61,424 bases of DNA from a virus. Taxonomy: Duplodnaviria > Caudoviricetes. The position numbers and the translations under genes are program-made. Under the pieces are notes generated by a model. It was not told the DNA's origin, ran no database searches, and saw only the letters and a list, made by a program, of their open reading frames with translations. Shown here piece after piece: positions 5,770-55,566 of the stretch. How positions within the stretch are numbered: position 1 is the first letter of the stretch; every line of letters begins with the position of its first letter. Location: positions 1 through 61,424 of IMG/VR virus record IMGVR_UViG_3300028840_003815. One strand, 5' to 3'.

Positions 5770-6696
5770 CTATCGCCTTCTATTTAAATCAAATTCTGTA
5801 CAGACCGGCTGCCCTGAAAATCCATATTGCCACTGTTCAGGGTATTCTTTGCTATCAATGTCAAAAGCCTTAGACAAGTGTTTTATCTTGCAAAATTTCT
5901 TCTTTGTACATATCTTGCAATAAATTGCATTCATGAGGGATTCTTCAGTTGGGGATACCGGTTTAAACGGTTGCCCTGCTTTATCCTCAAGTTTTTTTGC
6001 TACTGATTGAGGCAAGAAAACCTTATGCTTCCTGAGTATTGCAGAGACTTTTTTAACTGAGTTCCCATTACTATACCCGTAAACTCTTTTGGCGATTTGA
6101 CTTAATGATAAATCCTTGTTTCTCAATTGGATAATATCAAACTCTTTTTCAGAGTACTGTATTGGTAAATCCGGTTGGCGGTGTGGCTGTGTCGGTTGAA
6201 AATCTTGTGAAAGCTGTTGAATGATTTCCTGTGAAACCTGATATTCCAATGTCTTCAATTTTGCCTTTTTAAATTTTAAAAAGGATTCAAATAAAATTTC
6301 CATCTGACTCGGTTCATAATGCTGAATTTCGGCGCTTTGTTCAAGGGCGGAAAAAGCCCGCATAATTTGAATTGAGCGCTTGATAGCAATGTCTGTATGA
6401 AGAACGGCTGAAAGCATGTTGCAGCCTTCACGGGTGAAGGCGTGAGGAAGGTATTTAACATCTTGTAACCATTGAAAGGTCGCACCCTGCGACCTTAGAA
6501 TTCCAACTTCATCCTTTGTCATCTGGAATATAAAATCTTCCGGGAACCGTTCAGGGTTTCTTTTGACTGCTTCATTAACTCTTTTGGTTTCAGTCCCGTA
6601 AATAACTGCAATGTCTTTATCTAACATTGCGTCCGGCCTGCCTTCAAGCCTGATGATTTGCGATTGAATTTCTGTAACTGTTAATTCCGTATTCAT
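5770..6696 (-). CDS. ORF6N-domain antirepressor-like DNA-binding protein
   Basis: MLDKDIAVIYGTETKRVNEAVKRNPERFPEDFIFQ..PHAFTREG..MLSAVL is the ORF6N signature. Confidence 0.9.
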   Translation of the reverse strand: MNTELTVTEIQSQIIRLEGRPDAMLDKDIAVIYGTETKRVNEAVKRNPERFPEDFIFQMTKDEVGILRSQGATFQWLQDVKYLPHAFTREGCNMLSAVLHTDIAIKRSIQIMRAFSALEQSAEIQHYEPSQMEILFESFLKFKKAKLKTLEYQVSQEIIQQLSQDFQPTQPHRQPDLPIQYSEKEFDIIQLRNKDLSLSQIAKRVYGYSNGNSVKKVSAILRKHKVFLPQSVAKKLEDKAGQPFKPVSPTEESLMNAIYCKICTKKKFCKIKHLSKAFDIDSKEYPEQWQYGFSGQPVCTEFDLNRRR

Positions 6697-9441: not shown

Positions 9442-10056
9442 TTAAAGAACAAGTCCTATATCATCAAATATTACAGGGTATTTGTCTTTCAAATTATGCA
9501 ACAATTGAATCATAAGCTCTCTGATTTGCGGGTGTGCAGCTTTCGATGTTCTCAGACTTAAAATATGTCTCAATTCCCTGATGTTTGCAGTCATAACAAT
9601 CACGGTTTTAAGGCTGTTAGGTAACACACTTCTGGCTTGTTCCGGCTTGGCTCCTTTTGCAAGGAGTTGTACATACATCATTTCTGCATAATTCATTGCA
9701 GTTTCCCAATTCATCATTTCCAGTGATGAATTTTTCCAGAATACCGGCCTGATGACTGCAATGCCATTTTTATACATGCAGTATCTTGTGCTTTCCTGAC
9801 TGTACGAAGCAAGGCGATGTCTTACAAGTTCATGCGATACTCCCCTATCCGTAATGAACTTTATGGTAAAGTTCATATGTTCAATCACGCTGTGATGCCC
9901 TGATTTTATAATTTTCTTTACAAATCCGGCTGCTGAATCAGCGGTTATTTTCCCCTCGCTTTGATAGCATGTTCTGCCTGCCAGTTCGATATTCTTTAAA
10001 ATAGTCTCACCATCCGGTGAGAATAAAATCTCATGAGACTGGTCAATTATCTTCAT
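9442..10056 (-). CDS. thyX: flavin-dependent thymidylate synthase
   Basis: GHHSVIEH, RGVSHELVRHRLASYSQESTRY, EQARSVLP, AHPQIR motifs. Confidence 0.97.
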   Translation of the reverse strand: MKIIDQSHEILFSPDGETILKNIELAGRTCYQSEGKITADSAAGFVKKIIKSGHHSVIEHMNFTIKFITDRGVSHELVRHRLASYSQESTRYCMYKNGIAVIRPVFWKNSSLEMMNWETAMNYAEMMYVQLLAKGAKPEQARSVLPNSLKTVIVMTANIRELRHILSLRTSKAAHPQIRELMIQLLHNLKDKYPVIFDDIGLVL

Positions 10057-10929: not shown

Positions 10930-10945
10930 TTGATTTTCTCTCTTT

Positions 10946-11035
10946 GAATTGGTTAATGTTGATTTCTTTTTACAGAATTTATATTTGATTGTCAAGAAAA
11001 TAATTATAAATTTATAATTTATTTTTTTCTTGACA
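10946..11035. promoter_or_regulatory. back-to-back sigma70-type promoters on an AT-rich palindrome (early promoter copy 1 of 7)
   Basis: tgtcaagaaaataattataaatttataatttatttttttcttgaca has TTGACA on both strands; conserved leader at 10946-10958. Confidence 0.75.
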
Positions 11036-14795: not shown

Positions 14796-14816
14796 GTGTT
14801 TTTCTCCTTGTTGTTT

Positions 14817-14838
14817 AAGCCCGACCGGAGCCGGGCTT
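14817..14838 (-). repeat. conserved pre-RBS hairpin AAGCCCGACCGGAGCCGGGCTT (also 16269-16288, 19090-19111, 19420-19441, 19897-19918; variant 18478-18498)
   Basis: Near-identical 22-nt hairpin between minus-strand genes, just 5' of an RBS. Confidence 0.9.
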
Positions 14839-14847
14839 GGTGATGGA

Positions 14848-15117: not shown

Positions 15118-15132
15118 GTTTTTTCTCCTATT

Positions 15133-15182
15133 GAATTGGTTAATGATGAATCCTTTTTATAGGAACTTTGAATCATTGTCAA
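15133..15182 (-). promoter_or_regulatory. early promoter cassette copy 2
   Basis: TTGACA, TATAAA, CATTAACCAATTC leader and AGGAG on the minus strand. Confidence 0.8.
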
Positions 15183-16248: not shown

Positions 16249-16307
16249 GATTTTCTCCTTTTTGTTTTAGCCCGACCGGAGCCGGGCTTAGTGATGAAAC
16301 ATTGATT

Positions 16308-16751: not shown

Positions 16752-16765
16752 TTTTTTCTCCTATT

Positions 16766-16815
16766 GAATTGGTTAATGATGAATCCTTTTTATAGGAACT
16801 TTGAAACATTGTCAA
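16766..16815 (-). promoter_or_regulatory. early promoter cassette copy 3 (near-identical to copy 2)
   Basis: TTGACA..TATAAA..CATTAACCAATTC. Confidence 0.8.
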
Positions 16816-19072: not shown

Positions 19073-19120
19073 TTCTTTCTCCTTTGTTTAAGCCCGGCCG
19101 GAGCCGAGCTTGGGATGGTG

Positions 19121-19402: not shown

Positions 19403-19446
19403 GATTCCCCCCTTTATTTAAGCCCGACCGGAGCCGGGCTTGAGTT

Positions 19447-19878: not shown

Positions 19879-19926
19879 AAAAATTCCCCTTTATTTAAGC
19901 CCGACCGGAGCCGGGCTTGATTAATG

Positions 19927-20307: not shown

Positions 20308-20324
20308 AATTTTTTCTCCATGTT

Positions 20325-20408
20325 GAATTGGTTAATGATTCTCTTTTATAGGATTCAGGTTAGTCTGTCAAGAAAATAATTAGTAATTTATAATTTATTT
20401 TCTTGACT
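20325..20408 (-). promoter_or_regulatory. early promoter cassette copy 4 with upstream palindrome
   Basis: Leader 20325-20337, TTGACA 20366-20371, gtcaagaaaataatt..atttattttcttgac. Confidence 0.8.
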
Positions 20409-20799: not shown

Positions 20800-20814
20800 T
20801 GTTTTCTCCCTGTT

Positions 20815-20865
20815 GAATTGGTTAATGTTAAGTAAGGTTATATATGAAAGTTGAAACATTGTCAA
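20815..20865 (-). promoter_or_regulatory. early promoter cassette copy 5
   Basis: TTGACA-17-TATAAC plus conserved leader. Confidence 0.85.
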
Positions 20866-22359: not shown

Positions 22360-22376
22360 GATTGTTTTCTCCTTGT

Positions 22377-22427
22377 GAATTGGTTAATGTTGAGTAAGGT
22401 TATATAGGATTCAGTTTAATCTGTCAA
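22377..22427 (-). promoter_or_regulatory. early promoter cassette copy 6
   Basis: TTGACA-17-TATAAC plus leader. Confidence 0.85.
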
Positions 22428-22918: not shown

Positions 22919-22931
22919 TGTTTTTTCCTGT

Positions 22932-22982
22932 GAATTGGTTAATGTTGAGTAGTCTTATACAGGAGGCTTGAAATAATGTCAA
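22932..22982 (-). promoter_or_regulatory. early promoter cassette copy 7
   Basis: TTGACA-17-TATAAG plus leader. Confidence 0.85.
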
Positions 22983-25608: not shown

Positions 25609-25839
25609 TCAAGCTCGTGGGCTGTGGATATTATCATAAAAAAACTTTTTAGAGCAATATAGGAAAAGGTTTGTACAGATTCCACAATTGAACACCCTTC
25701 CGCAATAATCACATTTACTCTTCTCTATTTTTTTTATAATTTCCTTAACAGATAATTCTTTCATTCTGCCTCCAATATTGTTTTTTTCAATATCCATATC
25801 TGACAATATTTTATTGAATAGGTCTTTTGCTTTACTCAT
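25609..25839 (-). CDS. hypothetical protein with CDYC..CGIC
   Basis: Coupled to the repeat protein. Confidence 0.5.
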   Translation of the reverse strand: MSKAKDLFNKILSDMDIEKNNIGGRMKELSVKEIIKKIEKSKCDYCGRVFNCGICTNLFLYCSKKFFYDNIHSPRA

Positions 25840-26306
25840 TTCTTATTAGCTTCATACCAAGCTTTGCTTCGTGCTTTTATCTTATCCTTATTAGCCTCAT
25901 AGTAAGTTTTTGCTTTATCCTTATTAGCCTCATAGTAAGTTTTTGCTTTATCCTTATTAGCCTCATAATAAGCTTTTGCTTTATCCTTATTAGCCTCATA
26001 ATAAGCTTTTGCTTTATCCTTATTAGCCTCATAATAAGCTTTCTTCCGTGCTTTTATCTTATCCTTATTAGCCTCATAGTAAGTTTTTGCTTTATCCTTA
26101 TTAGCTTCATAGTAAGTTTTTGCTTTATCCTTATTAGCCTCATAATAAGCTTTATTGTAAGCTTTTGCTTTATCCTTATTAGCCTCATAATAAGCTTTTG
26201 CTTTATCCTTATTAGCCTCATAATAAGCTTTCTTCCGTGCTTTTATCTTATCCTTATTAGCCTCATAATAAGCTTTGTTTTTTGCTTTGCGTTCTTCTGG
26301 TGTCAT
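25836..26306 (-). CDS. tandem-repeat basic protein (KAYYEANKDKA)n
   Basis: About 12 near-identical 33/42-nt coding repeats. Confidence 0.75.
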   Translation of the reverse strand: MTPEERKAKNKAYYEANKDKIKARKKAYYEANKDKAKAYYEANKDKAKAYNKAYYEANKDKAKTYYEANKDKAKTYYEANKDKIKARKKAYYEANKDKAKAYYEANKDKAKAYYEANKDKAKTYYEANKDKAKTYYEANKDKIKARSKAWYEANKK

Positions 26307-30441: not shown

Positions 30442-33041
30442 ATCCATCTTTTAAAAATAAAGTATTAGATTGTTTAAAAAACAGTCAATTTTGGACTCAA
30501 AAGACAAAAGACAATGGCAGTAAAATTTCGGGATTAACTTGTCCTGAGTGCGGAAAAAATGAAGCGTGGGCGTATAGCAAAAGCCCTATGGCTATATTTT
30601 GCAGCAGGGGAAATAAATGCTACGCAAAAACACTGACTTTATCCCTGTTCCCGGAAATCAGACAGAACGTAGAGAGGGATTATCCAGCTACAAAAACAGA
30701 ACCCCATAAACCAGCACTTCATTATTTACAATCCAGAGGGCTTAATAAGAGTCTGGAAGGGCTTGACTTCCAATATTGGAAAAAAACCCGCAAGGGCTGC
30801 GGTGGCGCTGTCATGTTCCCTGTTTCTAAAGATGTTTGGAATGGCCGTTTATTTAACCCAAACGGAAGCGGGAAAAGCCATACAAAAGGGGCGTATGGCG
30901 GAATATTCTGGAAGCATCCGGGAATACAGTATGATTCCGATAAAAAAACGTATGTTACTGAGGGGATTCTTGACGCACTTTCCTTTATAGAGATGGGATT
31001 TCAGGCAATTGCGATTATTTCAGCAGGGCAGACACCTGAAAATATAAAGCTGATTGAGTTTCATAACGTATGGTTAGCTTTTGATAACGATAACGCAGGT
31101 ATAAACGCCCTGAAAAAATGGAAAGATAAATTTCCGGGATACAAGGCTATTCTGCCGGACAAGGGGCAGGATTGGAATGATTTTCTTGCATTGAATGATG
31201 ACAAAGCATCTGAAATTTTTAAGAAAAAGAGTGGGAAATTTCAATTCAATGCAGAGCTGGCATTATCCAAGACTGCCCTTGAATACACAGAAAAGTTTTA
31301 TGGATTTCATAAATTTCTGCCTGGATTATTTCAATTCAATGGCTGTTACTGGATGGCAGGTATTAAGCAAAAGAAAGATGATGTAGAGATTAACGTTTAT
31401 AAATGTTCTGATTTCATCATGAAACCGCTTTATAAGCGATTGTTTATGGAATCTAAACAAACTGCTGAATATAGTTATTACCTACGGGTAACTCCAAAAA
31501 ATGAGAAATCCGTTGATATAACTATATCCGGTAAGGATTTGGCAGTTTTAAATAATACAAGACAAGTTTTTGGATTCAGGGCCGGGGTTTCATGGGTGGG
31601 AGATAATGAAGCCTTGACAAAATTACAGGAAAAAATCAGGCGCGCAAAGATTCAGGAAATCAAAATTGTTGATAATGTAGGATATAATGACGGTTGTTAT
31701 ATCCATTCCCATTTTATGATTGATGAGCGTGGAAATTTTCATTTACCGGATAAAATCGGAATAATCAAAAGTTTTGAACCGTTTGAAGCTGAGGACGCAT
31801 TAAAGCCACTTTCTGAACCTGTTTTAAATGCTCAAAAAGTGCAAAATATGATTTACAAAGCATGGGGAAATCAAGGTCTTGTGGCTATGGCTTGGACAGT
31901 TGCTTCGTGGTTCCGGTCTCAGATTCTTGAATCAGCCGGTTTTTTTCCGTTTTTATCGTTATATGGCGACCCCCAAACCGGCAAAAGTAACTTGATAAAG
32001 CTTTTACAGCATTGTCAGGGGTTCAGAAATGAAGGACATGGACTAAAAAAGGCTGATACAATCAAATTTATTGCTCGGTCTATCGCTCAAAGAAGCAATC
32101 TGTTTTATGCAATTCTGGAAGAACAGGGAAAACATGATAGTAAATTTGATTATCCAGGTATTATCCTGACTGGATATAATGGGAGCAGTATTCAGGGCCG
32201 TGCAGCTTTTTCAAATAATAACAAAACTCAATCCAGCCCGCTTGAGTGCGGAATAGTTTTTGTACAAAATTTTGAGCCATTCACAACCCAACAGGAAAAA
32301 GAAAGAGTTTTTTCTGTTCCATTCCGGATATCCCAGCTTTCAGAACAATCCTTTACAGCATTCAGGGAGCTTTTAAAGTATCAACCTGCTGCATTTTTAC
32401 AGGTTTTTATAGATGTCATGTTAAATAAGCAGGTTATTGAATCTGACTGGTTTGAAAGATTTAATATTCTAAGAGATGAGTTTATTCAGACTCTCCATGA
32501 CAACCGACTTGCTGAAGTATCGGCTATACTTATGACTTTTCATAATATTCTTTGTGCTATTACCGGCAATAATTTTGATATTAAGGATTACATATTACAG
32601 CTTACAAGAGAAAAGCAGGTGAATAAATCAAATGATTTGCCAGAAGCGGATATGATCCTTGATTATATTTATACAAATGCAGAAAAAGATTTAAGTCAAT
32701 TTGTAAAAATTGACTTACAAAACAGTCTTTTATGCTTCCACTGGGTTTCAGTGAAACAGCATGTTGAATCTTTCAGAGGGTTAAAACAGAGTGAAATTGT
32801 TAAGCAATTCAAGCGGCATGAGGCTTTCAACGCATGTAATAAAACTGTTAGATATGGCGATAATACATATAAATCATATGTATTTGATATTGAAAAAATG
32901 TCATGTGCTGTGAATTCTGGCTCTAACAATTGCTTTAATTGTGAATGGATTTACAGGGAAAATGGGATATTTACATGCCTAAAACACAATGGATCATCCA
33001 TTGAATCAGTGGTAGATTGTCAGCATTTTGAGCAATCATAA
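30438..33041 (+). CDS. primase-helicase (Zn finger, TOPRIM, P-loop)
   Basis: CPECGK, VTEGILDALS, AFDND.AG, DWND, LYGDPQTGKS. Confidence 0.9.
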   Translation: MNPSFKNKVLDCLKNSQFWTQKTKDNGSKISGLTCPECGKNEAWAYSKSPMAIFCSRGNKCYAKTLTLSLFPEIRQNVERDYPATKTEPHKPALHYLQSRGLNKSLEGLDFQYWKKTRKGCGGAVMFPVSKDVWNGRLFNPNGSGKSHTKGAYGGIFWKHPGIQYDSDKKTYVTEGILDALSFIEMGFQAIAIISAGQTPENIKLIEFHNVWLAFDNDNAGINALKKWKDKFPGYKAILPDKGQDWNDFLALNDDKASEIFKKKSGKFQFNAELALSKTALEYTEKFYGFHKFLPGLFQFNGCYWMAGIKQKKDDVEINVYKCSDFIMKPLYKRLFMESKQTAEYSYYLRVTPKNEKSVDITISGKDLAVLNNTRQVFGFRAGVSWVGDNEALTKLQEKIRRAKIQEIKIVDNVGYNDGCYIHSHFMIDERGNFHLPDKIGIIKSFEPFEAEDALKPLSEPVLNAQKVQNMIYKAWGNQGLVAMAWTVASWFRSQILESAGFFPFLSLYGDPQTGKSNLIKLLQHCQGFRNEGHGLKKADTIKFIARSIAQRSNLFYAILEEQGKHDSKFDYPGIILTGYNGSSIQGRAAFSNNNKTQSSPLECGIVFVQNFEPFTTQQEKERVFSVPFRISQLSEQSFTAFRELLKYQPAAFLQVFIDVMLNKQVIESDWFERFNILRDEFIQTLHDNRLAEVSAILMTFHNILCAITGNNFDIKDYILQLTREKQVNKSNDLPEADMILDYIYTNAEKDLSQFVKIDLQNSLLCFHWVSVKQHVESFRGLKQSEIVKQFKRHEAFNACNKTVRYGDNTYKSYVFDIEKMSCAVNSGSNNCFNCEWIYRENGIFTCLKHNGSSIESVVDCQHFEQS

Positions 33042-35428: not shown

Positions 35429-35916
35429 TGGCAGGAATGTTAAAAGGCATTATTATTGGCAATCTTGGAGGCAATCCAGAACTTAAATACGGACAAGACG
35501 GGCTTGCACGGTGTCATTTCTCTGTTGCTTGCAATGAAAAAGTTAAGGGTGAAGACAGAACGGAATGGATACGGGTTACGGTATTCGGTAAACTGGCAGA
35601 AATATGCAGCCAATATCTTTTTAAAGGTAAACAGGTTTATCTTGAAGGCAGGCTTCAGACAAATACATGGGAAGATCAACAGGGGCAGTCCAGGTTTTCA
35701 CTGGAAATGGTTGCAAATAATATGGTAATGCTTGGGACAAAAGCGGATAATGGACAGGGCGGCGGTTATCAAGGCCGGCAGGGAGGCTACCAGCAGAATT
35801 CGTATAACCAGCCGCAGCAGGGAGGAAGCGGTTATCAGCCTACCCCACCCATACCGCAGGGACACCAGCAGTTACCGGAACAGCCTCCGGTTGATAATGA
35901 TGATATTCCATTTTAG
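35428..35916 (+). CDS. ssb: single-stranded DNA-binding protein
   Basis: IIGNLG..PE, TEW.RV..FGKLAE, KG.QVY.EGRLQT, C-terminal DDIPF. Confidence 0.97.
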   Translation: MAGMLKGIIIGNLGGNPELKYGQDGLARCHFSVACNEKVKGEDRTEWIRVTVFGKLAEICSQYLFKGKQVYLEGRLQTNTWEDQQGQSRFSLEMVANNMVMLGTKADNGQGGGYQGRQGGYQQNSYNQPQQGGSGYQPTPPIPQGHQQLPEQPPVDNDDIPF

Positions 35917-35955
35917 ATTTATTGATAAATGGCTTAACATATCATCATAAAATTT

Positions 35956-35999
35956 ACATCATTTTTATACTTGACACATAAAAATGATGTTGCTATAAA
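35956..35999 (+). promoter_or_regulatory. sigma70 promoter with a 13-bp inverted-repeat operator around the -35
   Basis: TTGACA(35971)-17-TATAAA; acatcatttttat / ataaaaatgatgt. Confidence 0.8.
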
Positions 36000-36007
36000 G
36001 AAAATAC

Positions 36008-36072
36008 TTTCAGGGATAGATTTCGGGTAGCTCCCGGAATTGATAAGCCGGTATTCACGAACCGGCTTCCCT
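36008..36072 (+). ncRNA. structured RNA element copy 1 (three-way junction)
   Basis: Three near-identical copies; two hairpins closed by an AGGGA/TCCCT stem. Confidence 0.75.
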
Positions 36073-36121
36073 TAAAAACCTCACTCGTGAAATCTTTACT
36101 CTTTACGTGAAAGGAGCTTTT

Positions 36122-36787
36122 ATGAAAACCGAAGTTATTATGTATCGGCCTTTTCTTACTTTTCAAGTTCGGCAAATGTCAAAATGTGAATTTTTGAATT
36201 GCAATGATGCACTTAAGGCTGTCAATGTTATTCGAATTGCTAATGGAAAAAGTGAAAAACGCCTTGATAAGTTTTTTGAAAATGACCATTCAGAATATTT
36301 AGAGGCTCTTTGTAAGTATTTGAATCAAGACAATATTTTAATTCCCCAGAAAAATGGGGAATTAAAACCTACTGATTTAATTATAGTAAAAAAGGGTCGC
36401 TATGGCGGGACTTGGTTGCATCCGTATTACTATACGAAATTTGCCAGATGGCTTTCTCCTGAATTTGAGGCTGCTGTTGATATATGGATAACAGATAACT
36501 TGCTCATGTTTCGGAATAATGGCGGCGATTCTTTTAAATTTCTAAATCGTATTCTTGATTCAAAATTTGAGATTGGTTCAAAATATTGGGAATATGCAAA
36601 GGTCGCAAAGTTTGTGCAAATTACAGTTTTTGGACATGAAGGGAATGATCTTTGGAACTTTGCAAATCAGGAACAACTTGCAAAAAGAGAACGCATTTTA
36701 ATTGAAATCGAAGCCGCTGCAAAGTATGGTAATTTTTCAAGCCTTGATGATCTTCTTGATTCTGTGGAAATCTCAATAAATAAATAA
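36122..36787 (+). CDS. KilA-N domain protein
   Basis: VRQ....FLN......KGRYGGTWLHP....FA.WLSPEF. Confidence 0.9.
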   Translation: MKTEVIMYRPFLTFQVRQMSKCEFLNCNDALKAVNVIRIANGKSEKRLDKFFENDHSEYLEALCKYLNQDNILIPQKNGELKPTDLIIVKKGRYGGTWLHPYYYTKFARWLSPEFEAAVDIWITDNLLMFRNNGGDSFKFLNRILDSKFEIGSKYWEYAKVAKFVQITVFGHEGNDLWNFANQEQLAKRERILIEIEAAAKYGNFSSLDDLLDSVEISINK

Positions 36788-36839
36788 CCGGATGCAAGCC
36801 GGAATAATATCCGGGGTGCAGTTCAAAAGGATATAAAAA

Positions 36840-37223
36840 ATGGAAAATAATGTCTTTGTTGTAGATGGCCTAACAAATAAATTTTTTTTATCGGTAGATT
36901 GTTTTTTATGTTTCATTAATCCTATAATGCAAGACACGGAAAAACTTGCAAGAACGGCGCACATTCCACAATTTAAATGGGAAGATGAAAAAGACTCTTT
37001 TATCCCCCTTGATATAGCTGAACGAGAAATAAAGGAAGAGTTAAAACATTGTGATACAAATTTTCAGGATTTATTTTATGAAATTTTAAATATTTTTAAT
37101 GAAATGAGAGATACATGTGAATTTAGTTTAAAGGGAAATTATTCTTATGTGTCCGCTCTTTTAAAGGCTTATCCAGATTTCAAAAATCATAAAATGTATA
37201 AAAAATATTATACTAAACTTTAA
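36840..37223 (+). CDS. hypothetical protein
   Basis: AAGGA RBS. Confidence 0.65.
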   Translation: MENNVFVVDGLTNKFFLSVDCFLCFINPIMQDTEKLARTAHIPQFKWEDEKDSFIPLDIAEREIKEELKHCDTNFQDLFYEILNIFNEMRDTCEFSLKGNYSYVSALLKAYPDFKNHKMYKKYYTKL

Positions 37224-37224
37224 T

Positions 37225-37240
37225 TGTTCTACGTGGAACA
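37225..37240. other. parS-like palindrome 1 (TGTTCTACGTGGAACA)
   Basis: One mismatch to TGTTCCACGTGGAACA. Confidence 0.8.
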
Positions 37241-37309
37241 TTTCAGGGATAGATTTCGGGTAGCTCCCGGAATTGATAAGCCGGTATTCACGAACCGGCT
37301 TCCCTGGAA
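37241..37309 (+). ncRNA. structured RNA element copy 2
   Basis: Identical core to copy 1. Confidence 0.75.
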
Positions 37310-37360
37310 TCCTTCTTATCGTGAATCTCTATAACTCTTTACGTGAAAGGAGTCCAAAAA

Positions 37361-37954
37361 ATGATTGATCTTCTTAAAGAATCGGTAGATAAATTTAATT
37401 CATTCAGACAAGAAAATCCTGAGATAAAAATTGACTTTCAGGGGGTAGATTTACAGGGTATGAATCTCCAGAATGTTGACCTGCAGGGTGCGAATCTCCA
37501 GAATGTTGACCTGCGATATACAGACCTTCAGAATGCGAAGCTCGAAAATGCTGATCTCCGATGTACATCTCTTAGATATGCAGACATTCAGAGGGCAAAC
37601 CTTAGATATGCTAAGCTCTCTGATGCTGACCTTCGTGGTGCTGACCTCAGTCATACTATTCTTCTAAGGGCAGACATTAGAGATGCGGATCTCCGGTATG
37701 TTGATCTCCATAATGCTGATCTCAGTCATGCAGACATCAGGGGAGCCGTTTTAGATTTCTCTTGCATCCCTTTATCCTGCAAAACAACTGGGATAATCGT
37801 TGATGACAGATTTATTGCTCAACAGTTATTTTATTTAACACGGCAAAATACAAAATATTGTTCCGGTGGGGTTCAAGAAGCCATTGAACATATAAAAGAT
37901 ATGGCGGTCTCTGATTTGTTTTGCGAATACCGTAATGATATTTCTCGATTATAA
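37361..37954 (+). CDS. pentapeptide-repeat protein
   Basis: (A/V)DLxx repeats; AAGGAG RBS before ATG 37361. Confidence 0.92.
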   Translation: MIDLLKESVDKFNSFRQENPEIKIDFQGVDLQGMNLQNVDLQGANLQNVDLRYTDLQNAKLENADLRCTSLRYADIQRANLRYAKLSDADLRGADLSHTILLRADIRDADLRYVDLHNADLSHADIRGAVLDFSCIPLSCKTTGIIVDDRFIAQQLFYLTRQNTKYCSGGVQEAIEHIKDMAVSDLFCEYRNDISRL

Positions 37955-37958
37955 AAAT

Positions 37959-37974
37959 TGTTCCACGTAGAACA
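37959..37974. other. parS-like palindrome 2 (TGTTCCACGTAGAACA)
   Basis: Reverse complement of site 1. Confidence 0.8.
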
Positions 37975-38040
37975 TTTCAGGGATAGATTTCGGGTAGCTC
38001 CCGGAATTGATAAGCCGGATTAATGCACCGGCTTCCCTGA
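37975..38040 (+). ncRNA. structured RNA element copy 3 (different loop)
   Basis: Same stems; loop ATTAATGCA. Confidence 0.75.
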
Positions 38041-38106
38041 TATCTCTCACCATGAGGGGTTATGAACTTCATGAGTTGCCAAAAACATTAAGGGGAAATA
38101 TTCATA

Positions 38107-38385
38107 ATGAAATGGTATCAGTGTGATATTATCAAAAAGTCAGGGGATATTAAGTTTTGGTGCAGGTTTATCGCTCATGATGCCCAAGATGCTGAAAAAC
38201 GCATTGAAACACTTTTAAAAAAAACTTTAACTGGGAGTATAAAAAATAAAGCCTACTTGTTTGCGGCTAAAAGATACATTGATGATTTTAGGATTACAGC
38301 CGTACCGGAAAATATTTTGGCAATGTATGACTTAAATAAATCTTCAGATGTGGATTTGTTTTATGTGAAAGGCAAGGAGGGTTAA
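38107..38385 (+). CDS. hypothetical protein
   Basis: AAGGGG RBS. Confidence 0.7.
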   Translation: MKWYQCDIIKKSGDIKFWCRFIAHDAQDAEKRIETLLKKTLTGSIKNKAYLFAAKRYIDDFRITAVPENILAMYDLNKSSDVDLFYVKGKEG

Positions 38386-38392
38386 AAAGTTC

Positions 38393-38517
38393 TTGACATA
38401 TGATACACGTTAGTATAGTATACCAAACATAAGTTTTTTTTGCCAAAATAATTCAACATTGGGTGTGGACTTATTTTGTCGGGGGGCGTTCCATAGGGGA
38501 GCGCTCCCTTTTTTTTG
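38393..38517 (+). ncRNA. candidate small RNA (promoter plus terminator, no ORF)
   Basis: TTGACA-17-TAGTAT, about 90 nt, GC hairpin plus T run. Confidence 0.4.
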
Positions 38518-38541: not shown

Positions 38542-39330
38542 TAACTTGACAATGTCATACTAATGGTTTTTCAAAAAGTTGGAATAAAAATAGTTATTAT
38601 CCTAATGGTAAAGAAAAATTTGGTGTTTCATTAAAATATAAATTTTTAGAATATTTGGGTAAGGGGTGGTATCGTCCAGATTTTGCTCCGGTAGACTATT
38701 CAATAACAACACAACATTCTGACATTAAAGATATTATTAACAAGTGGAGAAAAAGATTAGATCGTAAAGTGGCTTTTGCAATATATAAAAATTGGGGATT
38801 TTTTAAAAAATATCAAATTGAAAGCATAACTGTCTTAAAAAACAAAATTGAAACGGGAGAATTACTATGACTATAAAGAATTTGGAATCAAGTATTCCTG
38901 CAAATAATGAAAAAATTATTGAGATATACAAAAAAGTAAAGGCTGGACAACTTGATCATAGTCCTGACTTTCAAAGAAAACTTGTTTGGAAAAAGCAACA
39001 TAAAATTAATTTTATAAAAACTATACTGCTTAATTATCCTTTCCCGGAGATATATAAAGCACCAGGAGATTTGAATGTTGATGATTTAGAATTGACAGAT
39101 TTGATTGTTGATGGCCAGCAAAGAGTAAATGCGATTGTAAATTTTATTGATTCTAAAGATGTTTTCGCCTTACCTAAAACATCTTTAAAATTTACAAATC
39201 TTACCAAAAAAGAAAAAGAAGATTTTCTGAATTATGAAGTTTCTGTACGTTATTTGAAAAATGCTGATAAAGCACAAATAAAAGAAATTTTTCAGCGAAT
39301 AAACAATACAGATATGACATTGTCAAGTTA
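38542..39330. mobile_element. 789-bp cassette bounded by perfect 18-bp inverted repeats
   Basis: taacttgacaatgtcata (38542-38559) / tatgacattgtcaagtta (39313-39330). Confidence 0.6.
38550..38870 (+). pseudogene. apparently 5'-truncated gene fragment
   Basis: Frame is open back to the left inverted repeat with no ATG or RBS; the track uses TTG 38655. Confidence 0.5.
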
Positions 39331-39331
39331 A
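38867..39331 (+). CDS. DUF262 (GmrS, ParB/Srx-fold) domain only, 3'-truncated
   Basis: PDFQR..VW, I.TIL..YP.PEI, IVDGQQR, EIFQRIN; ends inside the right inverted repeat. Confidence 0.88.
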   Translation: MTIKNLESSIPANNEKIIEIYKKVKAGQLDHSPDFQRKLVWKKQHKINFIKTILLNYPFPEIYKAPGDLNVDDLELTDLIVDGQQRVNAIVNFIDSKDVFALPKTSLKFTNLTKKEKEDFLNYEVSVRYLKNADKAQIKEIFQRINNTDMTLSS

Positions 39332-39366: not shown

Positions 39367-39382
39367 TGTTCTACGTGGAACA
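39367..39382. other. parS-like palindrome 3
   Basis: TGTTCTACGTGGAACA. Confidence 0.8.
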
Positions 39383-39404: not shown

Positions 39405-39594
39405 ATGTGTAAACATATAGAATCAAAAACTTGCTGGTGTAATCCCACTGTTGAAGACTATTCAAAAAAAAAAGAAAGTTAATTTCTGCTGGCATTGTGG
39501 TCGAAAACTTCAAGGAAATCATCGTGTTGAAAAGTTTATAGATGGTGAAATAAGAACACTCCATAAACAATGTGCTAAAAATTGTTCCACGTAG
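39405..39594 (+). pseudogene. small Cys/His-rich gene split at an A10 tract
   Basis: MCKHIESKTCWCNP..., then +1 frame KVNFCWHCGRKL...LHKQCA. Confidence 0.55.
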
Positions 39595-39598
39595 AACA
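39583..39598. other. parS-like palindrome 4
   Basis: TGTTCCACGTAGAACA. Confidence 0.8.
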
Positions 39599-39616
39599 TT
39601 TTTAAAAGGAGTAAAA

Positions 39617-40132
39617 ATGATACTATGTGATTTAGAAATTAAAGAAATGGCTCAAGCCGGTATGATTGAGCCATTCTCTATAAAAAATCTTAATCCCGCA
39701 AGCTACGATCTTACACTTGGGGATAAATTCAGAGTACCGGAATCCGGGGGCTGGTCTGATGAAGTCCATATGCCAGAAGCAGGTATTGATCTTGATGTTT
39801 TCCCCTTTATCCTCGCTCATTCTCTTGAATACCTGAACATGCCTGATAATATAGCAGCTATGCTATATAGTAAAAGCACTGCCGGCCGCAAAGGGATTGA
39901 GCATTCTCACGCCGGATTTATTGATCCAGGATTTCCAGGGCAACTGACTTTTGAAGTTAGTTGCCTATGGCCTTTTAAGCGGATTATAAAACCCGGTAAT
40001 AAATTATTCCAGATTGTATTTTTCAGAATGTCCGGGAAGCCGGAAAAGAATTATATGGAAAAATCTGATTCTCATTATGTAAATCAGTCCGGAGCCACTG
40101 CTAATTATGATAATGGAAGGAGCAGTTTATGA
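39617..40132 (+). CDS. dcd: dCTP deaminase
   Basis: NPASYDLTLG, KST.GR.G, AGFIDPGF.GQLT.E, Y..Q.G. Confidence 0.92.
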   Translation: MILCDLEIKEMAQAGMIEPFSIKNLNPASYDLTLGDKFRVPESGGWSDEVHMPEAGIDLDVFPFILAHSLEYLNMPDNIAAMLYSKSTAGRKGIEHSHAGFIDPGFPGQLTFEVSCLWPFKRIIKPGNKLFQIVFFRMSGKPEKNYMEKSDSHYVNQSGATANYDNGRSSL

Positions 40133-40798: not shown

Positions 40799-41033
40799 AA
40801 AATGGCGTGACAATAGATTTAATACAGAGTATTATATTTTATATTAAATATAAATGGATTGATATACCACGAAAAAAGGGTGTATTAATCCATTTATAGC
40901 GGATAAAACATGGTGTTTAATCTGGTTCCCCAACCGATTTAAATTCGTTTTTGTCTGCAAAACTTCTTAAAAACCGGGTTTATTCAAGGTGTTGGCGCAC
41001 CTTAGTGAGTCCGGTTTTTTTATTTTTTTATAC

Positions 41034-55550: not shown

Positions 55551-55566
55551 TGTTCTACGTGGAACA
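55551..55566. other. parS-like palindrome 5
   Basis: TGTTCTACGTGGAACA, intergenic. Confidence 0.8.

Follow-up and report, generated by a model that had tools for sequence, protein, structure and literature searches.

The complete viral record IMGVR_UViG_3300028840_003815 (Duplodnaviria; Caudoviricetes) comprises 61424 bases with 144-bp direct terminal repeats, and this whole stretch is referred to as the window. Between positions 35971 and 38509, the window carries three copies of a ~65-nt element that folds into a three-way junction and precedes, in turn, a KilA-N domain gene, a pentapeptide-repeat protein gene, and a small open reading frame (ORF). The region reads as one + strand operon, in which a promoter, the three elements, the genes, and a terminator-like hairpin follow one another. 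In the list of its features below, L2 stands for the loop of the second hairpin of the element, T1 and T2 for the two downstream sites complementary to L2, and bit scores are those of the covariance model R2 described further on.

35971..35999, + strand: putative sigma-70-like promoter, assigned by reading (TTGACA 35971-35976, 17-nt spacer, TATAAA 35994-35999)
36008..36072, + strand: copy 1 of the element; three-way junction proper at 36012-36072 (45.0 bits, E = 4e-12)
36053..36060, + strand: L2 of copy 1, from the minimum-free-energy fold and the parse
36085..36091, + strand: T1 of copy 1, 7 nt complementary to L2, 13 nt past the closing stem (-9.1 kcal/mol)
36106..36116, + strand: T2 of copy 1 (36106-36111, 6 nt complementary to L2, -7.3 kcal/mol) and Shine-Dalgarno sequence AAGGAG (36111-36116)
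36122..36787, + strand: KilA-N domain gene, start codon at 36122, 221 amino acids (Pfam PF04383, E = 1.3e-12)
36840..37223, + strand: ORF of 127 amino acids without family match
37225..37240, + strand: 16-nt palindrome TGTTCYACGTRGAACA, which separates the preceding stop codon from copy 2
37241..37309, + strand: copy 2 of the element; 65-nt repeat unit at 37241-37305, closing stem lengthened to 9 bp (46.6 bits)
37286..37293, + strand: L2 of copy 2, same sequence as L2 of copy 1
37319..37326, + strand: T1 of copy 2, 8 nt complementary to L2 (-9.7 kcal/mol)
37342..37352, + strand: T2 of copy 2 (37342-37347, -7.3 kcal/mol) and Shine-Dalgarno sequence (37347-37352)
37361..37954, + strand: pentapeptide-repeat protein gene, start codon at 37361, 197 amino acids (Pfam PF00805, E = 1.4e-40)
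37959..37974, + strand: second copy of the 16-nt palindrome in the operon, immediately 5' of copy 3
37975..38040, + strand: copy 3 of the element; 65-nt repeat unit at 37975-38039, same scaffold with another loop (47.2 bits)
38019..38027, + strand: L2 of copy 3, from the fold
38086..38096, + strand: weak T2-like site of copy 3 (CATTAA 38086-38091, 6 bp with the loop, -3.6 kcal/mol), abutting a G-rich Shine-Dalgarno sequence
38107..38385, + strand: ORF of 92 amino acids, start codon at 38107, without family match
38481..38509, + strand: terminator-like hairpin followed by a T run, from the terminator scan; likely end of the operon

The three copies form a 65-nt repeat family (36008-36072, 37241-37305, and 37975-38039) and share a 40-nt core at 36012, 37245, and 37979, always on the + strand. 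This core occurs exactly three times in the window, as compared with 0.00 occurrences expected by chance, and a covariance-model scan of the full window revealed no fourth copy. Each copy assumes the three-way junction fold, with free energies of -27.8, -32.3, and -30.0 kcal/mol for copies 1, 2, and 3 and z-scores of -3.65, -4.57, and -4.57, respectively; none of 200 shuffled sequences folds equally well. The only difference in the scaffold from copy to copy is the hairpin-2 loop of copy 3. These results confirm a first-pass annotation of the locus, made from the letters alone, which had described three copies with this fold, loops with complementary sites at the positions listed above, and a KilA-N gene behind copy 1. 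Transcription from the putative promoter would begin ~2-6 nt ahead of copy 1. The automatic promoter scan omits this site because the scan needed a final T in the -10 hexamer.

In copies 1 and 2, the match between the loop and T1 is reached by only 10 and 16 of 5000 shuffled loops, respectively, and the match in the 13 nt beside the ribosome-binding site is equaled by 38 and 36 of 5000. The leaders of the two copies are paralogous over their whole length and therefore count as one observation, not two, although the core of T1 is conserved between them where the flanks diverge. The T2 pairing of both copies stops 1 nt short of the Shine-Dalgarno 4-mer. The loop of copy 3 does no better than many shuffled ones in the stretch of its leader that spans 22-65 nt (2377 of 5000 are as good), and in the 13 nt beside the Shine-Dalgarno sequence, an interval picked post hoc, 84 of 5000 shuffled loops do as well.

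Additional targets of the loops in trans within the window were considered and rejected, because loop complements with up to two mismatches are no commoner than in shuffled sequences (15 versus 26 expected and 78 versus 86 expected). An 11-nt complement of the copy 3 loop, including one G-U pair, is located at 40880-40890 (0.06 expected). It lies inside the 3' arm of a 20-bp hairpin, and its role as a target is unproven.

Kinship with the int-alpA RNA

A search of the whole window against Rfam at the gathering threshold gave no match, and known ribozymes and riboswitches were rejected on this ground; tRNA and tmRNA were also rejected, as none was found. When the threshold was relaxed to E <= 10 on positions 35900-38200, no c4, isrK, or int-alpA match appeared, and a single weak, unrelated match overlaps one of the elements. 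The element is nevertheless not without relatives and proves to be a distant relative of the int-alpA RNA (Rfam RF02996), though Rfam models miss it directly. A strong Rfam match, which the first-pass annotation had named as what would remove the novelty but not the function, is not obtained.

The relatives were recovered with a covariance model built from the three window copies alone (R1). A sequence pattern constrained only in the junction and the hairpin-2 stem, with any loop allowed, retrieved 6 viral and 12 metagenome stretches, and 9 of these 18 match R1 at E <= 4e-4. The matched stretches have, beyond the pattern, the same 5' closing strand, the UA dinucleotide, and a hairpin 1 that is different in sequence and yet compensated. 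Three R1-matched stretches are recognized by Rfam as RF02996 int-alpA, with 41.1, 36.6, and 35.2 bits versus a gathering threshold of 35.8.

Other routes to relatives were less productive, and close kin of the phage were not found in the collections. Blastn of the region found no match in phage records, and no exact occurrence of the 21-nt hairpin 1 was found in viral contigs. A scan of viral contigs with the helicase protein yielded no relative; the closest other helicase in the protein collection is 46% identical. The 80 loci of the helicase alignment lack the element (R1 gives a single match of 13.8 bits, E = 3.6), and none of five whole records was matched, the nearest of them (L118) not being syntenic. 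A loose two-block pattern returned at least 114 stretches, and none of the 80 loci searched matches R1 at E <= 1. In genome contigs, a pattern search returned five stretches, comprising two real ones from Xanthomonas arboricola prophages and three that are terminator-like hairpins by eye.

Among 151 sampled genomes from the class to which Xanthomonas belongs, the Rfam model itself detects int-alpA in 12, at 19 places, 18 of them above the cut-off. R1 matches such Rfam-called places on the same strand, most strongly L204 (36.7 bits) and L234 (36.3 bits, E = 6e-8), followed by L228, L229, and L225 (24.7, 20.4, and 16.2 bits); the Rfam scores of the places matched in this way range from 33.6 to 59.2 bits. 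For the opposite direction, a second model (R2) was built from seven sequences outside the window, these being the seven, out of 21 loci, with an R1 match at E <= 0.04. R2 scores the window copies at 47.2, 46.6, and 45.0 bits (E about 1e-12), with the next best match at 18.4 bits, and its matches at E <= 0.01 are exactly the 22 family loci. Detection thus works in both directions, R1 finding Rfam-confirmed places and R2 finding the three window copies, with the reciprocal match being partly circular because the R2 seeds were all picked with R1, and some of them had come from the window pattern. The core of hairpin 1 in the window is, moreover, identical letter by letter to that of several members above the Rfam threshold.

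The stems of the junction covary. Across 21 distinct rows, 95% of the cells in paired columns are paired, 11 of the 15 pairs vary on both sides, and the covariation score exceeds that of all 500 shuffles. G-U pairs occur on the sense strand, suggesting that the structure is one of RNA and not of DNA.

The window copies follow the order of elements in int-alpA: a closing stem, UA, a hairpin 1 that starts with G, a purine-rich GA-type junction, a hairpin 2 with a ~9-nt loop, and the 3' closing strand. The conserved junction letters (UA, and the GA-rich stretch before hairpin 2) are kept. The conserved tail site complementary to the hairpin-2 loop is present in copies 1 and 2 (-9.1 and -9.7 kcal/mol) and absent from copy 3 (-2.6 kcal/mol). 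The differences begin with the score, as the window copies remain below the 35.8-bit gathering threshold of the Rfam model. Hairpin 1 has 9 bp in the window versus ~4 bp in the Rfam consensus, the closing stem has 5-9 bp versus 8, and the 2-nt bulge ahead of the 3' closing strand is missing. This absence is common to the window, L204, L234, and the copies in the Xanthomonas prophages (33.6-41.1 bits with Rfam). Furthermore, the window loop is not anti-Shine-Dalgarno-like, and T2 of the window abuts the Shine-Dalgarno sequence instead of covering it. The setting also differs, being an operon of a terminal-repeat phage rather than the gap behind a P4-type integrase, with three copies in 2 kb.

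By Rfam's own criterion, the window element is not a member of RF02996. In our reading, its sequence marks it as a real but divergent int-alpA relative, belonging to a putative subtype with a long hairpin 1 and no bulge. The subtype also takes in L242 and L243 (viral contigs), L204 (metagenome), L234, and the Xanthomonas prophages.

The int-alpA RNA motif stems from Weinberg et al. 2017 (PMC5737381), whose main text does not mention the motif. A literature search, beyond whose reach the supplements of PMC5737381 lay, found no published function for int-alpA. Elsewhere the name "int-alpA" is used for a gene order, or the motif is listed in a genome screen without further study; Rfam files it as an sRNA gene. 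The window variant newly extends a family that is known but functionally uncharacterized.

The loop and its two target sites across the family

In the family sequences, L2 is complementary to two sites, T1 at ~8-12 nt and T2 at 20-30 nt past the junction. The words of loop and T1 differ among members and change together, and at least 15 different loop/T1 pairs were counted. We compared the pairing of each loop with its own sites and with those of other members (n=30). Own pairs are the stronger ones for both T1 (-8.30 versus -5.06 kcal/mol for swapped pairs) and T2 (-7.86 versus -6.25 kcal/mol), with none of 20000 permutations being as good in either case. The result persists when the window copies are left out (n=28). 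In a smaller earlier run (n=21), 0 of 20000 permutations were as good for T1 and 6 of 20000 for T2. In half of the members (15 of 30), at most one of the 30 loops outranks the member's own loop in pairing with its T1.

The loops of the members were taken from covariance-model-based alignments. The set of 21 leaves out the near-duplicates L238, L240, L201, and W2, and the set of 30 also leaves out L258, L249, L252, L257, L260, L247, L254, and L261, where L254 and L261 are similar, not identical, to the retained L253 and L255.

T2 overlaps the Shine-Dalgarno 4-mer in 22 of the 30 called members and abuts it within 3 nt in 4 more, among them all three window copies. Starts and Shine-Dalgarno sequences were called by a crude automatic procedure, which gave 4 evidently wrong starts and left one further member without a call. 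The first-pass annotation had proposed a conserved scaffold that presents a loop matching a site beside the ribosome-binding site, with a covariance model of homologs as the means of checking it. This proposal is borne out by copies 1 and 2 and by relatives with different loops, in which the stems covary (0 of 500 shuffles) and own loop-target pairs beat swapped ones; copy 3 fits it poorly. The exceptions to the loop/target rule are window copy 3 and two elements in viral contigs, L255:8519-8576 and L261:5700-5757, in which the hairpin-2 loop is long and different and T1 is not evident.

The classical members of the family sit close behind another gene. A stop codon is located 5-12 nt 5' of the element in 15 of 22 family rows. 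The upstream ORF is a P4-type integrase in 7 of 10 cases tested, with the stop codon 6-12 nt before the element in five of these and 27 and 60 nt before it in the other two. Among the 16 downstream ORFs tested, none shows a Pfam family above threshold. In viral contigs, one setting is the gap that separates a major capsid gene from a GIY-YIG gene; in others, the element follows a NinG gene or precedes an HNH/AP2 gene. In the window, their neighbors are SSB, KilA-N, pentapeptide-repeat, and small ORFs, and a non-exhaustive scan of 20 window ORFs showed neither an integrase nor a repressor module. What these settings have in common is an accessory or selfish gene placed behind another gene.

Possible function and alternative explanations

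The best analog of the window element among known RNAs is c4 of phage P1, and the comparison with c4 made in the first-pass annotation is apt as an analogy. C4 RNA (P1 and P7; RF01695) is likewise a three-stem RNA inside the leader of the operon under control. As read in the C4 loci, one of its hairpin loops complements the region around the ribosome-binding site that serves the next gene, and a second complementary site follows right after the closing stem; these loci show the same logic. The two families are distinct at the model level, with no match either way: the Rfam C4 model (threshold 45 bits) does not match the window, and R2 matches none of the 14 C4 loci at the C4 place. The closing stem has ~16 bp in C4 as compared with 5-9 bp in the window. 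C4 uses two seeds with separate targets (a' in the single-stranded junction and b' in a loop), whereas the window element uses one loop for one target that is present twice, and it lacks the single-stranded stretch ahead of the 3' closing strand. In the members inspected among the C4 loci from sampled genomes (L262-L275), this stretch complements a site past the stem. One Xanthomonas genome (G006) carries C4 copies together with an int-alpA-like element of 34.2 bits, below the Rfam cut-off. PMC5320573 describes excision of c4 by RNase P and occlusion of the ribosome-binding site by the b' loop of this RNA.

The first-pass annotation also cited P4 CI and Gifsy-1 IsrK. Both are leader-derived small RNAs of mobile elements, in which a loop pairs with repeated targets in the same transcript family and shuts off downstream genes; they act via transcription termination or anti-Q control. 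Neither shows a sequence or model match to the window element; the Rfam model of IsrK (presumably RF01394) has no match on the window.

In the explanation that we favor, though we consider it an even call, the element is a divergent int-alpA subtype that serves as a portable leader or intercistronic module for the translational control of the next accessory gene. The module sits directly ahead of accessory genes, and its three-way junction would expose L2, which could pair with either of two complement copies downstream on the same RNA. Pairing of L2 with T2 would block ribosome binding and turn the gene off, whereas T1, the nearer alternative partner, would engage L2, free the Shine-Dalgarno sequence, and turn the gene on. 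In this way, the module may set or switch translation of the following gene independently of the host operon. Through the loop/target pair that they share, copies 1 and 2 would place the KilA-N and pentapeptide genes under common regulation. Copy 3 carries another loop, has only a weak T2, and lacks T1; it would be either a weakened copy or one with a different mode of action. The data show the copies, their fold, the family kinship, and the complementarity of loop and target throughout the family, whereas an effect on translation, as well as the direction and the trigger of such a switch, is what we infer from the sequences.

Several points weigh against translational control by an int-alpA-type module. 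One is copy 3: its T1 is absent (-2.6 kcal/mol), its T2 consists of 6 mostly A-U pairs at -3.6 kcal/mol, and among the 30 members it comes 29th for T1 and 27th for T2. The first-pass claim that the site behind copy 3 "changes accordingly" with the loop rests on these 6 pairs and is overstated or unsupported, and copy 3 is one of two outliers among 30 members; the second is L255, which pairs at only -0.9 kcal/mol. In the family-wide comparison, the permutation test ignores relatedness among members, and own pairs at T2 surpass swapped ones by only 1.6 kcal/mol. Most family loops are anti-Shine-Dalgarno-like; part of the T2 signal is therefore common to all members, and the swapped T2 scores are inflated. 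In the window, T2 adjoins the Shine-Dalgarno sequence instead of covering it. When the leaders of copies 1 and 2 are folded in the ordinary way, T1 acquires another partner, since it can form a weak hairpin with the stretch that holds T2, the Shine-Dalgarno sequence, and the start codon (-8.7 and -13.4 kcal/mol; z-scores -0.5 and -1.8). L2-T1 pairing could therefore activate and not merely compete, so that any switch may run in either direction. As for the kinship, the int-alpA Rfam model applied to positions 37225-37365 (141 bases) at E <= 10 does not report the window copy; in addition, three of the seven R2 seeds came from the window-derived pattern, and all seven were chosen and aligned with R1.

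Action in trans, as a c4-like antisense RNA, seems unlikely. The junction would be excised, perhaps by RNase P cutting 5' of the closing stem, and the free small RNA would pair with T1 and T2 of other transcripts and silence the KilA-N and pentapeptide genes, with copy 3 representing a second, orthogonal specificity. Such a role is consistent with the presence of two targets per loop, with a loop and targets that are common to copies 1 and 2, with a conserved U-rich stretch 5' of the closing stem in both the family and the window, and with the filing of int-alpA as an sRNA gene. The KilA-N gene behind copy 1 may also be a parallel to antirepressor control by c4. According to our reading of the folds, hairpin 2 stacks on the closing stem with no base between, forming 11-15 bp that resemble the acceptor/T-arm minihelix of tRNA, and c4 itself is processed by RNase P and works via loops, according to PMC5320573 and the reference list of PMC4919922. 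The lack of a match to the C4 and isrK models and the failure of R2 on all 14 C4 loci speak against this explanation, as does copy 3, which is almost without a target; with no integrase or repressor module seen in the ORFs scanned, an immunity role is also without an obvious setting. We give somewhat less weight still to a module for RNA processing or stability, in which the junction and an L2-T1 pseudoknot would mark a cleavage site or protect the 5' end of the downstream message. Each accessory cistron would then be uncoupled from the preceding one, and the proximity of T2 to the Shine-Dalgarno sequence would be secondary. The position of the element just past upstream stop codons (5-12 nt in 15 of 22 family rows) agrees with such a module, and so do the location of copy 1 at the predicted 5' end of the primary transcript, the separate small palindromic hairpins that precede copies 2 and 3, and a T1 complementarity that is stronger and more specific than that of T2. 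A pure stability element, however, does not need T2 on or beside the Shine-Dalgarno sequence, where it is found in 26 of 30 called members, and T2 also tracks the loop beyond swapped pairs (0 of 20000 permutations).

Two further explanations concern DNA and transcription. It is highly improbable that L2, T1, and T2, by virtue of their CGTGAA-type words, and the related 16-nt palindrome are operators bound by a phage protein at the DNA level and that the RNA fold is incidental. The core of the palindrome is similar to T2 and its flanks, and the palindrome occurs five times in the window, twice adjoining an element; relatives, however, keep the complementarity of loop and target with quite different words, and stem covariation with sense-strand G-U pairs favors RNA. 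We find it just as hard to believe that the element is a branched intrinsic terminator or attenuator, whose GC-rich closing stem and U-rich tract would end transcription behind the upstream gene. Many classical members do have a U-rich tract directly after an 8-bp GC-rich closing stem, whereas the window copies have no U run past the stem, the terminator scan lists none at the three element sites, and copy 1 is located at the start of the transcript and not at its end.

Doubtful, in our view, is a broader form of the proposal, in which int-alpA-type junctions constitute a widespread portable antisense "address" system of phages and integrative islands, each with a private loop and two targets, one of them at the ribosome-binding site, that would also act in trans after processing, as c4 does. 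An accessory gene would then carry its own translational control to any place where it inserts. The phage would then run two addresses in one operon, one for copies 1 and 2 and another for copy 3. If true, an orphan Rfam motif would gain a mechanism, and a natural set of orthogonal loop/target pairs would become available.

The window element extends the int-alpA family past integrase-linked islands of Proteobacteria into a terminal-repeat phage and reveals a whole subtype that the Rfam model misses. Across the family, a consistent three-part design emerges, comprising the loop, a nearby decoy site, and a further site at the ribosome-binding site; compensatory changes in it are numerous and independent. 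This design is the most useful result, provided that the supplement of PMC5737381 does not already describe it, and leads to the concrete hypothesis that mobile accessory genes (KilA-N, pentapeptide-repeat, homing endonuclease, and island cargo genes) are under translational control. If that supplement shows an int-alpA pseudoknot, the loop-T1 pairing is not new, and novelty may then be left to the T2 finding and to the subtype seen in the window.

Other repeats and genes in the window

The palindrome TGTTCYACGTRGAACA is present in five intergenic copies (37225-37240, 37959-37974, 39367-39382, 39583-39598, and 55551-55566). Two of the copies outside the operon lie 8-10 nt ahead of an AAAAGGA-type ribosome-binding site. 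Conceivable roles of the palindrome are that of a hairpin for RNA processing and that of a DNA operator.

A GC-rich hairpin, whose stem resembles hairpin 2 of the element, occurs in five copies (14806-14840, 16257-16291, 19079-19113, 19409-19443, and 19886-19920), which are located directly ahead of the ribosome-binding sites of - strand early genes. A weaker sixth match with 63% identity lies at 30844-30878. Seven conserved leaders are also found on the - strand (10933-10963, 15120-15150, 16753-16783, 20312-20342, 20802-20832, 22364-22394, and 22919-22949), with promoter-like sequence upstream. These are the seven early leaders whose CATTAA start had been noted as complementary to the copy 3 loop; that match comprises 6 nt only, without extension, and is treated as chance.

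The intergenic region 40842-41020 is strongly structured (z = -7.1 for 40842-40975) and opens with a perfect 20-bp hairpin at 40849-40897. It lies between a promoter-like site (40807-40835) and a hairpin with a U run near 40972-41025, the latter terminator-like by reading. Positions 25798-26264 contain 11 copies of a tandem 33-nt unit, with 61-92% identity to the reference copy, in overlapping ORFs on both strands.

A second antirepressor-type gene, with an ORF6N domain and a Ros/MucR-like C terminus, is encoded on the - strand at 5770-6696, without a copy of the element. The ORFs at 38867-39331, 39572-40132, and 9442-10056 are GmrSD_N/DUF262-like, dCTP deaminase-like, and a ThyX thymidylate synthase, respectively, and hint at altered nucleotide metabolism or DNA modification. 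The sequence of the phage, for which no RNA run is listed, is present in public sediment and seawater metagenome runs.

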